64,000 nucleotides of DNA, taken from NCBI GenBank assembly GCA_000004695.1, contig CM000152.2, positions 704,001 through 768,000 of the forward strand, given 5' to 3'. Each line of letters begins with the position of its first letter. Positions within the stretch are counted from its first letter, which is position 1. Below are positions 55,225 through 58,730 of this stretch, piece after piece. Made by a program: the position numbers and the translations under genes. The stretch is from Dictyostelium discoideum (lineage: Eukaryota). The notes below the pieces were generated by a model, which was not told the origin of the DNA, did no database searches, and worked only from the letters and a program-made list of their open reading frames with translations.

Positions 55225-55849
55225 AAAGTAATAACAATACAAATAAAAATAATATTAAAACATAAACAGTCTTTGTATTTTGTAACATTAAACTCTTATA
55301 TCAATTGTTGTAGGGAATTTTATTATTTAATTTCACTACAGTAGCGCAGTGAAAAAAAAAATCACTGACCCTAAATTTTTTTTTATTCAAAAAACAAATA
55401 AAGTTTATTATTTTTTTGTTTTTAATTATTAATTCCTATTTTAATGGTTAATTATTATTATTTTTTTTTTTTCTTTTTTTTTTTTTTTTTTTTCTTTTTT
55501 TTTTTTTTTTTTTTCTCATTTTTTTCATTTTTGTTTTTCATTTTTTTTTTATTTTCATATTTTCAATTTTAGGACAACAAATTATCAAACAAACATTAAA
55601 GAAATCTAAAACTTCAGAATATTTATCATTTGAAAATAATTTAATTTAAAAGAAATGTGAAGAGTTTATATTATTTGTTATTAATGAATTACCAAAATTA
55701 AAATACTTAATTGGGTATTAATTTCAAAAGATGAAAGAACAAAAGCAGCAAAATTAGATAGTGAAGGTTTCTTTCAAAACAATTCTAAGTGTTACTCCAG
55801 TTGTTATCAATAATAAAAAATAAATAATAATAATAATGTGATATCATCA

Positions 55850-56890
55850 GCTCAATCTTCACCATCATTAAGTAGTGCATCAACACCAATTCCAACTCCA
55901 TTAAATACTAGTAGTAATAATATTGGTGGTAATACTACTACAAGTGTATCAGTTGGATAATCCCCAACAATCAGGGGTATACCATCATCACCAGATCAAC
56001 AAGTTTTATTCAACGCAAACCATCAGTCAGTGCAATATGATGCCAAAATTAAATTCTTCTTTGAATTGATCAACTGATTTCCTTGGTAAAGAAAGAGAAA
56101 ATCATCAATCAGCTTCATCTTCACCTTCATCTTCATCATTATCAATATCATCATCATCACAACAACAACAACATAATAGTAACAATCATCCAAAATCGTT
56201 TGATGAAGCACCTGAAGTATTATCACCATTTGATATTTTAGAATTAAAAGTTAATGCAGAGAATTCTTTATCTTCATCACAAGATTTAAATCAACACAAT
56301 GTAACAACGGCTAGTCAAATTTTACAAGAAATTAAACCAACTAAAGAATTAACTAAACAAGAAACTGAAGCATGCAATTCCAGAGGAACCAATTGAAGAA
56401 TGTAATAAATCACTACAACCACTGCAATTAAGATCATCTTCTTCATCTTCTTCATCTTTTTCAACAACAACAAAAACAACAACATCACCACCACCACAAC
56501 AACAACAATTAGATTCGCCATTACCATTACCAGTTACTATTATTAATATGCCAATGGATGATGATGAACTTATTAGTGATGGTACAATAAGTGGTGCTTA
56601 AACTAATGATGGTATCAATTATTGTACCATCATTAGTTAAAGAATCATCAAGAGAATCATTATTGGCTACAACTATTGATAATTCAACATTATCAACTAC
56701 ACCATCACCATCTCCAAAATTACCAACTCTTGAAAGTGTTGTAACTGCTAAACCATTGTTACATCATCATCTTCTTCTTCTTCAACCACCACTACTCAAA
56801 CTAATAAAGAAATTTGGACTAAAATTGATCAAAATACTGCACCATCAACTCCATCTATAATTTTACCAAAAAGATTACCTTCTCAATCAA
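55850..56890 (+). pseudogene. Decayed Ser/Thr/Gln-rich ORF (frameshifts and in-frame stops) inside the TIR element
   Basis: Three plus-strand frames each carry 60-110-codon coding-like stretches (..SAQSSPSLSSASTPIPTPLNTSSNN.. / ..GKERENHQSASSSPSSSSLSISSSSQQQQHNSNNHPKSFDEAPEVLSPFDILELKVNAENS.. / ..[55 protein letters not shown]..). They are interrupted by stops and frame changes, with antisense ORFs overlapping. Confidence 0.4.
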
Positions 56891-56897
56891 ATCTTAA

Positions 56898-57005
56898 TAT
56901 TAATAATAATAATAATAATAATAATAATAATAATAATAATAATAATAATAATAATAATAATAATAATAATAATAATAATAAAAATAATAATAATAATAAT
57001 AATAA
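56898..57005. repeat. (AAT)n microsatellite (~35 units) inside the TIR element
   Basis: Perfect aat repeats following the decayed ORF. Confidence 0.9.
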
Positions 57006-57419
57006 ATAATAATTAATTAAATAAATAAACAAAAAGAATAAATAAATAAAAACAATAAATAAAAAAAAAGATAATAAAATAAAACTACAATCTTAATTGA
57101 AAAAAAAAAAAAATAAAATAAATAAATAAAATAAATAAATAAAATAAAACTAGTTTTAATAAATCTAAAACTTTGTAAATATGTTTTGAAAAAAAAAAAA
57201 AAAATTTTATTTTATTGTTTAACTAAATTTGGTTTAAAATTCAAATAAAGAACTATCTACTCTAAAAAAGAGACCCTTTTCAAATGATAATTGTTGAACA
57301 CCATTTCTGCAATCACTACCGTCATGAGTAGAAAATTACCATTTAAACTAAATTGAATAAATCCACTTGATAACCTGTTGGAATTAGCTACTTGTTTTTT
57401 AATTATTATTTATTGTTTA

Positions 57420-57520
57420 TTTGTTTATTTGTCTATTTATTTATTCATTTATTTATTCATTTATTTATTCATTTATTTATTCATTTATTTATTCATTTAT
57501 TTATTCATTTATATTCATTC
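57420..57520. repeat. 12-bp minisatellite (TCATTTATTTAT)n, ~8 units, inside the TIR element
   Basis: ttattcatttatttattcatttatttattcattt... 57436..57515, with degenerate units either side. Confidence 0.8.
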
Positions 57521-57842
57521 ACTAATAATATATTACCTATTTTAAAATTGAAAAAATGAAAATGAAAAAAAAAAAAAAAAAAAATTGAAAAAAAAAAAAT
57601 TGAAAAAAAAAAAAAAAAAAAAAAAAAAAAAAATATTACCAATAATAATTATAATAATAATAAATAAAATAATAATTAAAACAAAAAATAAAATTACAAT
57701 TTAATAAACTTTATTTGTTTTTTGAAAAAAAAAAAATTTAAGGTCAGTGATTTTTTTTTTTTCACTGCGCTACTGTAGTGAAATTAAATAATAAAATTCA
57801 CTACGCTGTAGTGAAATTTTATTGAAAATTCCCTACAACATC

Positions 57843-58730
57843 AATGTCACAATGTAATTGCTTTGTAAATGTTTTTACACTGCAGTAGTGATGCTGCAAA
57901 AAAAAGGGTAAGACCAAGCGATTATAAATATATCCCAGAACACTCTAGAAACGATATTGCAAATATTTTAGAAAGAGCTATAGCATCAGAAGAGGAAAAT
58001 CTCGAAAAAATCGAAAAAACAAAAGAAAGACTTTCACGCGCAAGGAAGGAAATTGAAGATCTTAACGCCAGAAATGAAAGTATTCAAGAATTAATTTCAG
58101 AAAATGACAAAAATTTAAAGAATACAAAAGAAGAAATTGAACGTTTAAAAAAAGAAAAAGATGAATTAAAAAAAGCAAAGGGAGAATTCGAAGCTTCTTT
58201 AAAAGAAATTGAAGTAAAAACAGCTTTCTTGGAGGATGTTAGTCAACATATCTTCAAAGAAGCACTCCGAGATCCAGCAGTGATGTGGGGTAAATTAACT
58301 TATGGAGGTGTGATCCCAACTAGCGAAGAAAACAGACAATTTTATTTAAATCTTGTCCAACATTTCGAAAAGAAAAATTATAGAATTTCCGAACTCAGAG
58401 AAGAATTGGAGTCTTTTCCAATTAATAAATTATTGGAAAAACTCCATATTGGTGATTCCAAAACAGAAGAAACAACCGATTGCATTGTCCCAGAGTCATC
58501 TGCTATAGTGCCACCACAACCAATAACTCCAACCACACCAATTATTACCGAGTTCGAAAAAGACAATTAATAAGTAACAAAATAAACTAACCACTTAGGG
58601 TTTTAAATTTTTTTTAGAGTGGTTTAAAATATCTCTTGTATTAATATTAATATCGTAAATGTAATTGCATTGTAAATGCAGTGTAAAATTTTACACTGTG
58701 TAGTGACGCTCAAAAAAAAAGTAAAAAAAG
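57843..58730. repeat. Pair of ~60-bp direct repeats (57847..57905 and 58655..58722) bracketing the coiled-coil ORF
   Basis: AATGTAATTGC(T/A)TTGTAAATG...TTTTACACTG(C/T)(A/G)TAGTGA(T/C)GCT.CAAAAAAAA(A)G occurs in both copies. The second copy has the perfect palindrome CAGTGTAAAATTTTACACTG. The CACTGCAGTAGTG core resembles the CACTACAGTAGCG sub-repeat of the neighbouring TIRs. Confidence 0.6.
57869..58570 (+). CDS. Coiled-coil ORF (233 aa) flanked by ~60-bp direct repeats, adjacent to the TIR element
   Basis: Intact ORF with E/K-rich heptad-like stretches (EENLEKIEKTKERLSRARKEIEDLNARNESIQELISENDKNLKNTKEEIERLKKEKDELKKAKGEFEASLKEIE). The first ~15 codons lie inside the upstream direct repeat, so the true start is uncertain. 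Confidence 0.35.
   Translation: MFLHCSSDAAKKRVRPSDYKYIPEHSRNDIANILERAIASEEENLEKIEKTKERLSRARKEIEDLNARNESIQELISENDKNLKNTKEEIERLKKEKDELKKAKGEFEASLKEIEVKTAFLEDVSQHIFKEALRDPAVMWGKLTYGGVIPTSEENRQFYLNLVQHFEKKNYRISELREELESFPINKLLEKLHIGDSKTEETTDCIVPESSAIVPPQPITPTTPIITEFEKDN

Follow-up and report, generated by a model that had tools for sequence, protein, structure and literature searches.

In a 64-kb stretch of Dictyostelium discoideum DNA (hereafter the window, to whose numbering all positions refer unless a locus is named), a 2,535-bp segment of chromosome 3, 55306–57840, is very probably a non-autonomous derivative of Tdd-4, a DNA transposon of the Ginger2/Tdd group with an integrase-like DDE transposase. 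The segment is bounded by terminal inverted repeats (TIRs) that are near-identical to Tdd-4 ends, is flanked by a perfect 5-bp target-site duplication (TSD), lacks a transposase gene, and belongs to a family with multiple copies in different flanking sequences. An earlier interpretation made from the letters alone, referred to here as the sequence-only reading, had described a TIR-bounded non-autonomous DNA transposon with a 5-bp TSD and a foreign interior, and this structural description was correct. Its suggestion that the family might be uncatalogued was not sustained, since the right TIR is 95.9% identical over 146 bp to Tdd-4 termini. On sequence grounds, the element is a non-autonomous member of the already catalogued Tdd-4 family and not the representative of a new one.

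The terminus TGTTGTAGGGAATTTT begins at 55306, and its reverse complement finishes at 57840. Directly outside both termini lies the pentamer TCAAT, as the sequence-only reading had noted: the left copy (55301–55305) abuts TGTTGTAGGG, and the identical right copy (57841–57845), read in the sequence, has the same flanks in a second assembly. In that assembly of the locus (L001, GCA_054883475.1) the element and its TCAAT flanks are arranged identically at 99.8% identity. The probability of a chance match of the flanks at all five positions is ~0.0036 at the local base composition. Since every other copy includes the terminal T/A within the element itself (alignments A2 and A3), the TSD is 5 bp and not 6 bp long. 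A 5-bp TSD is a published hallmark of both Tdd-4 and Tdd-5 (PMC2836005). The right coordinates given earlier, 57840 and 57845, proved exact; the left ones, 55291 and 55296, were each 10 bp too low, the terminus being at 55306.

To place the termini, we used the zinc-finger/DDE cores of TDD4 (XP_629668) and TDD5 (AF298206) from Additional file 1 of PMC2836005; a two-sequence profile of these cores (alignment A1) retrieved Tdd-type proteins from several D. discoideum assemblies. One of them, P0006, is 98% identical to TDD4 and is encoded at locus L003, and a second Tdd-4 copy with the same terminus was found on another chromosome at L006 (P0037). The transposases of these two reference copies are 94–98% identical to TDD4 XP_629668. 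At L003, the terminus at 7431 is 95.9% identical over 146 bp to the right arm of the element; the first Tdd-4 exon (MKQDKINEIINYL...), homologous to Tdd-5-like N-termini, starts with the ATG at 7733, ~300 bp past the terminus, and the H2C2/DDE-coding sequence occupies 8010–8542. L006 and L003 are collinear at 96% along a 1.1-kb stretch that begins at the terminus and enters the transposase gene. The right TIR matched L006 in two pieces (100% and 91.6%), and the left TIR matched L003 7470–7584 and L006 7717–7831 at 92% over 115 bp; the TIR matches in L006 together span 7642–7831 at 92–100%. Further inward, 57529–57840 aligned with L003 7749–7431 at 82% over 330 columns, and 55310–55550 aligned with L003 7470–7725 at 79% and with L006 7717–7921 at 87%. 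The similarity between the element and Tdd-4 is confined to the ends. The TIR lengths given by Repbase for Tdd-4 and Tdd-5, 260 and 297 bp, are compatible with the element (PMC2836005).

No Tdd transposase was detected in the window by tblastn with the TDD4 and TDD5 cores, and neither the reconstructed interior protein nor the annotated proteins derived from the interior had a Pfam match, which bears out the claim that the interior carries no transposase. Because of these two negative results, the element is not an autonomous Tdd-4.

Five points weigh against the assignment. First, no full autonomous Tdd-4 carrying both ends was recovered, the copies at L003 and L006 being interrupted or truncated. 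Second, the TIR match covers the left terminus of Tdd-4, and the inverted right terminus was taken from the literature. Third, the TIRs of the other copies that share the interior are only ~84% identical to those of Tdd-4, and no autonomous partner of this variant was found among the Tdd lineages sampled (L003–L006, L009 and L010). Fourth, the empty-site form of the locus, which would read AACTCTTATATCAATGTCACAATGT with one TCAAT and no insert, was not recovered, the same AX4-like locus being all that exact-protein and cluster searches with the flanking genes returned; the case for mobility here therefore depends on the TSD and the further copies. Fifth, the comparison of ends covered the Tdd families, and this non-autonomous family may already be named, for instance among the thug-S, thug-T or DDT-A/B/S elements.

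The last point leads to an alternative, namely that the element is part of another catalogued family of non-autonomous dictyostelid transposons whose ends happen to be Tdd-4-like, such as thug-T or DDT-S. In its favor, thug is a catalogued DNA-transposon class that makes up 0.1% of the genome (PMC5633606), and the family-specific interior recurs in several copies, as it would in a named family. Against it, the small RNAs of Table 2 of the thug-S miRNA paper (PMC4894637), a table that does not say which of them correspond to thug-S, are absent from the window and related loci: a search with up to 3 mismatches of the window and L001–L008 gave nothing except an unrelated D4 match in L006, although a deletion derivative could lack the relevant region. 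In addition, the AX4 annotation placed the protein model DDB_G0278667 over the interior, suggesting that the interior was not masked as a known repeat. Moreover, the abstract of Gloeckner et al. 2001 reportedly sets thug and DDT apart from Tdd as new classes, and 96% identity of their ends to Tdd-4 would sit oddly with that definition. Literature searches returned only genome fractions when descriptions of thug and DDT structure were sought, and only unrelated primer matches when the terminal sequence strings were searched in full text. We consider this alternative unlikely and favor a derivative of Tdd-4.

The left TIR (55306–55420, plus strand; ~115 bp) is of the Tdd-4 type with a single palindromic sub-repeat and is ~95% identical to the reverse complement of 57702–57804, and the right TIR (57695–57840, minus strand; 146 bp) is a canonical Tdd-4 end with two palindromic sub-repeats, its match in L003 lying at 7431–7575. 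Local alignment and BLAST gave ~95% identity between 55310–55410 and 57702–57804 within a high-identity pairing of 55306–55420 with 57695–57840, and weaker T-rich/A-rich complementarity extends inward to ~55550 and ~57530. The inverted arms are thus as real as the sequence-only reading had them, but longer than its ~75 and 105 bp. The 24-mer core TTTCACTACAGTAGCGCAGTGAAA occurs at only two positions in the window, both of them in the arms, with 0 expected by chance. Next to the TIRs lie two subterminal regions homologous to Tdd-4 with a GC content of 4–16%: a T-rich one on the left (55421–55555, plus strand; GC 11–16%), which includes a poly-T array at 55461–55555 detected by Tandem Repeats Finder (TRF), and an A-rich one on the right (57529–57694, minus strand), which in the alignment with L003 reaches the position of the Tdd-4 start codon.

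The difference in arm length corresponds to one 36-bp sub-repeat that is present in the right arm only. Because canonical Tdd-4 ends carry two (L003) or three (L006) such units, the left arm lost one and the right arm gained none. The comparison of ends indicates that the single sub-repeat on the left is the product of a deletion between the direct repeats GTAG(G/T)GAATTTT, and not the sign of a right-arm duplication. The extra unit on the right had been seen before, where it was taken for a duplication of 30 bp; it measures 36 bp, and the change was a loss on the left. Across Tdd-4, the variant subfamily, Tdd-5 and two more Tdd lineages (L005 and L009), the 16-nt terminal motif TGTTG(T/C)AGGGAA(T/A)TTT is invariant (A2 and A3). 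In the same alignments, Tdd termini contain one to three sub-repeats of ~36 bp, each with TTTCACT-N10–12-AGTGAAA, and an additional CACTGAC half-site after the sub-repeats. The CACT-N10-AGTG columns are invariant across seven termini, and the spacer varies (A2). The palindromic TIR core described earlier is confirmed by this invariance; its supposed unusualness is not, the core being common to the termini of Tdd-4, the variant subfamily and Tdd-5. Of the 24 window matches to the 12-mer GTAGTGAATTTT with up to 2 mismatches, 6 lie inside ~260 bp of the two TIRs, and single-strand folding of the arms gave z = −4.75 (right) and −2.74 (left). We infer that the CACT/AGTG motifs are multiple candidate transposase-binding sites of the inverted repeat/direct repeat (IR/DR) kind.

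The search for further copies showed that neither the TIR nor the unit is unique. Inside the window, the TIR is found at the two arm positions only, as would be expected if a local inverted duplication had met a chance pentamer match without any transposon. However, the same terminus is present at at least seven unrelated sites at five other loci in three assemblies, with different flanks and twice directly upstream of a Tdd-4 transposase gene. The flanking pentamers differ at every terminus: TCAAT, ATAAT, GTGGA, TTTTG and TTTAA in the window and in L002, L003, L006 and L008. A local inverted duplication, already refuted by the termini at L003, L006 and L008, was rejected, and its probability is negligible.

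The interior recurs as well. A 108-aa piece translated from 56070–56393, the longest stop-free piece of the decayed open reading frame (ORF) that fills much of the interior, was searched with HMMER against 1.84 billion representative proteins and retrieved element copies only, with three relevant proteins: DDB_G0282771, DDB_G0278667 and ACTFIW_002450. Paralogues of the decayed ORF are thus represented by DDB_G0282771, L008 5335–6155 and L002 12680–13138. At another site on AX4 chromosome 3, DDB_G0282771 shows 95% amino acid identity and ends with the same frameshift stop (...EACNSRGTN). Because two copies have the same premature stop, the ORF was already broken when at least some copies arose. 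L008 5335–6155, in the locus that holds ACTFIW_002450, is 86% identical at the DNA level over 868 bp to 55352–56185 and runs continuously from within the left TIR into the interior. L008 also has a 75% match (2241–2877) to 56940–57620 and contains a shorter element with both ends, 1162 to ~3011, whose degraded right terminus leaves no second clean TSD. L002, from another strain and reached via the weak match P0001, carries a deletion variant of the decayed ORF (12680–13138, 78%), an inverted segment (14840–14543) that is 77% identical to 56961–57283, 3′ interior followed by a right TIR at ~15530–15675, and a second right end that finishes ...CCCTACAACA|TTTAA at 804. These copies point to an amplified non-autonomous subfamily rather than a singleton, in which the interior travels with Tdd-4-type ends.

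A TIR variant ~84% identical to that of Tdd-4 was observed at L002 650–804, L002 15530–15675 and L008 1162–1290, associated with the same interior; in it the palindrome spacers are altered and the CACT/AGTG stems are kept.

Two independent, oppositely oriented solo Tdd-4 ends, placed by chance on either side of an ordinary host gene in decay, could in principle resemble a single mobile unit. Tdd and DDT elements often insert near or into each other and are highly fragmented (PMC2665215), and L003 shows such a Tdd cluster. Nevertheless, a perfect 5-bp duplication brackets exactly two outward-facing termini, the TIR–interior junction is kept in an unlinked copy (L008 5335–6155), the arrangement of interior followed by right TIR recurs in L002 and L008, and the HMMER search with the 108-aa piece found no intact host parent of the interior among the 1.84 billion representative proteins. 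Such a coincidence is highly improbable, and we treat 55306–57840 as one element.

The interior contains no transposase-like sequence but a succession of decayed and repetitive segments. A short open stretch at 55640–55712 (plus strand) corresponds to an exon (KCEEFILFVINELPKLKYLIG) of the AX4 model DDB_G0278667, as seen when the sequence of P0044 is compared with the frame-0 translation. It is followed at 55730–56900 (plus strand) by a decayed Ser/Thr/Asn-rich coding-like sequence, a family-specific cargo, which in three-frame translation can be traced only if stops are ignored and the frame is changed among all three; at 28–33% GC it matches the neighboring exons. The decayed Ser-rich ORF of the sequence-only reading is thereby borne out. 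A (TAA)n microsatellite of 39 copies occupies 56895–57013 (plus strand; TRF), the tract that had been counted as (AAT)35. An A-rich spacer with a ~200-bp unique segment (57200–57380) lies at 57014–57400 (plus strand) and is common to other family copies, as judged from the L002 and L008 matches. A 12-bp minisatellite (TTTATTCATTTA), also noted before, is repeated 8 times at 57416–57512 (plus strand; TRF, 92% matches). Comparison of the interior with all Tdd loci gave no match, tblastx producing minisatellite noise only, and an Rfam scan of 54500–59000 gave nothing except a single chance match with E = 0.91. A 46-bp near-perfect palindrome at 56597–56642 (AACTAATGATGGTA...TACCATCATTAGTT) was detected within the decayed ORF by self reverse-complement BLAST (89% over 47 columns); it coincides with a break of the reading frame and may represent a small insertion or a footprint left by repair or excision.

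Other classifications were considered. Miniature inverted-repeat transposable elements (MITEs) are shorter than ~800 bp, have no coding-like content and reach high copy numbers; at 2,535 bp, with a 1.2-kb coding-like interior and a handful of copies seen, the element does not fit, and the MITE-like label given to it earlier is not appropriate to its size. Membership in Tdd-5 was rejected since the TIR sequence differs. Classification as a transduplicating (Pack-type) element is not supported, since the interior could not be traced to a parent in the host: the exhaustive search described above, made with one piece, gave element copies only, and a word-indexed search with the concatenated pseudo-ORF, which was swamped by low-complexity words, gave a single weak match, to another element copy.

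A plausible course of events can be outlined. The element keeps both Tdd-4 ends (~250–310 bp each, including the 115–146-bp TIRs), and ~2 kb of unrelated sequence, consisting of the decayed ORF, the microsatellites and the short unique segment, has taken the place of the transposase gene. This chimera of Tdd-4 ends and interior would have had a single origin, most plausibly in abortive gap repair or template switching after excision. Tdd-4 transposase supplied in trans from an autonomous copy would bind the repeated GTAGTGAATTT / CACT-N10-AGTG motifs of each TIR and excise the element at the invariant TGTTGTAGGG termini. Insertion would proceed through a 5-bp staggered cut, whose repair made the TCAAT duplication, and amplification as a unit, with the ORF already broken, would have given several diverged copies. 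The mobilization in trans, the role of the palindromes as binding sites and the gap-repair origin are inferred. It is conceivable, though doubtful, that the copies constitute an undescribed cargo-bearing 'Tdd-4N' subfamily that originated in a single event of gap repair or capture, later amplified and diversified to include the ~84% TIR variant, and contributes exons to the host transcript DDB_G0278667. If this were so, a transposon would have driven gene-model chimerism, or exonization, in the compact genome of a protist. Tdd-4 appears to support non-autonomous passengers, and the alignments define a 16-nt terminal motif and candidate CACT-N10-AGTG binding sites. The value of the analysis lies mainly in annotation, with no new transposon family or mechanism.

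The element lies in a short spacer between two plus-strand genes of the window, whose overall GC content is 22.7%. The insertion is 77 bp past the stop of a 180-aa ORF (54682–55224) and 23 bp ahead of the ATG of DDB_G0278363 (57869–58570, plus strand), a D. discoideum AX4 gene for a 233-aa, coiled-coil-like protein. An 859-aa ORF at 45797–48376 is DDB_G0278359, and the ORFs nearby are ordinary host genes that encode a TPR protein, a kinase, a WD40 protein, a DUF885 protein and a DNA polymerase subunit. No tRNA genes were found in the window, which indicates that the context is not tRNA-targeted. The upstream 180-aa ORF has no exact protein record, and DDB_G0278363 and DDB_G0278359 were found in the same AX4-like assembly only, in single-member clusters. 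Among 5.8 billion proteins, other Dictyostelium assemblies included, DDB_G0278363 had no homologue besides itself; it is an orphan gene, and the Tdd-4 end is now its only upstream sequence. Codons 4–8 of this gene (57888–57902, CACTGCAGTAGTG) look like the TIR core CACTACAGTAGCGCAGTG, a likeness that may be due to chance.

The insertion has consequences for the host gene models. DDB_G0278667 (P0044, 316 aa; 54682–56393, plus strand) is a chimera of host ORF and transposon interior: its N-terminal 172 aa are those of the upstream 180-aa ORF (MNNTGNRLD...KQLEKE), and the remainder is derived from the element (KCEEFILFVINELPKLKYLIG, ASTPIPTPLNTSSNNIGGNTTT and KRENHQSASSS...EACNSRGTN). Because the model joins the host ORF to the element interior, its predicted GT-AG intron, with the donor near 55199 and the acceptor near 55650, takes in both the stop codon of the host ORF and the left TIR. 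Across the same span, a model of 474 aa is annotated in GCA_054883475.1 (L001 6819–9146). These models represent either an annotation artefact or exonization. DDB_G0282771 and two 'hypothetical proteins' of another strain represent additional copies of the decayed ORF. We propose that all of these, together with DDB_G0278667 and the 474-aa model, be flagged as transposon-derived.

Several further observations were made at the Tdd loci. At L003, the truncated Tdd-4 lies between the two halves of a 696-bp inverted duplication (6735–7430 and 10276–10971; 98% complementary), which adjoins a left end of Tdd-5 type at 10971; the duplication is either a rearrangement within a transposable-element cluster or an assembly artefact. 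L006 5914–5935 is ~20 kb from the end of the chromosome record CM142511.1, which fits the published remark that two of four loci are near telomeres. Imperfect inverted ends with Tdd-like motifs (TGTTGTAGCGAG...CAGTGAAAAATTTCAC / TTTTCACTAAGCAGTG...AAAATTTCCCTA) were found at L002 11246–11350 and 12420–12530; the ~1.2 kb between them is AT-rich and contains (AAATC)n arrays, and the pair may mark a further small Tdd-related non-autonomous element. In addition, assemblies of D. discoideum and D. cf. discoideum contain at least two or three more lineages of Tdd-like transposases (L005 7947–8716, L009 1710–1985 and 7202–7752, and L004 8052–9106). These are 44–70% identical to TDD4 and TDD5, and their TIRs have only the 16-nt terminal motif in common, so that the Tdd group looks more diverse than its two named families.

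Among known systems, the closest is Tdd-4 itself (Wells 1999), one of the integrase-like DDE 'cut and paste' transposons of the Ginger2/Tdd group (Bao, Kapitonov & Jurka 2010, PMC2836005). The element shares with Tdd-4 the terminal 146 bp at 96% identity, similarity for ~250–310 bp inward from each end, the terminal motif TGTTGTAGGGAATTTT, the 5-bp TSD, the host species and the dispersal of copies with unrelated flanks. It differs in that it has ~2 kb of unrelated interior in place of the H2C2/DDE transposase gene, in that it measures 2,535 bp as opposed to 3,839 bp, and in that its left arm has one palindromic sub-repeat whereas canonical ends have two or three. A 3.4-kb deleted Tdd-4 was reportedly described by Wells in 1999. 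Tdd-5 (AF298206) has in common with the element the terminal 16 nt, the CACT-N10-AGTG cores and the 5-bp TSD, but the rest of its TIR has diverged, and the TIR of the window had no BLAST match in the Tdd-5 locus L010. This locus holds a Tdd-5 copy that is 98% identical to the TDD5 N-terminus and whose terminus at 6644–6804 matches L003 from 10971 onward at 96%; the transposases of Tdd-5 and Tdd-4 are 54% identical in the core. Ginger2-1N1_NV of Nematostella is likewise non-autonomous and keeps the TIRs of an autonomous Ginger2 element (PMC2836005, Table 2), but it is MITE-like, measures 252 bp, has TSDs of 4 bp and is present in more than 50 copies, whereas the element described here is 2.5 kb long, includes a decayed ORF and is represented by few copies. 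Transduplicating elements such as Pack-MULEs belong to a different superfamily, and the searches for a host parent gene of the interior gave none that would point to capture; they nonetheless resemble the element in that their TIRs enclose coding-like sequence unrelated to transposition, which is propagated with them and picked up by gene predictors.

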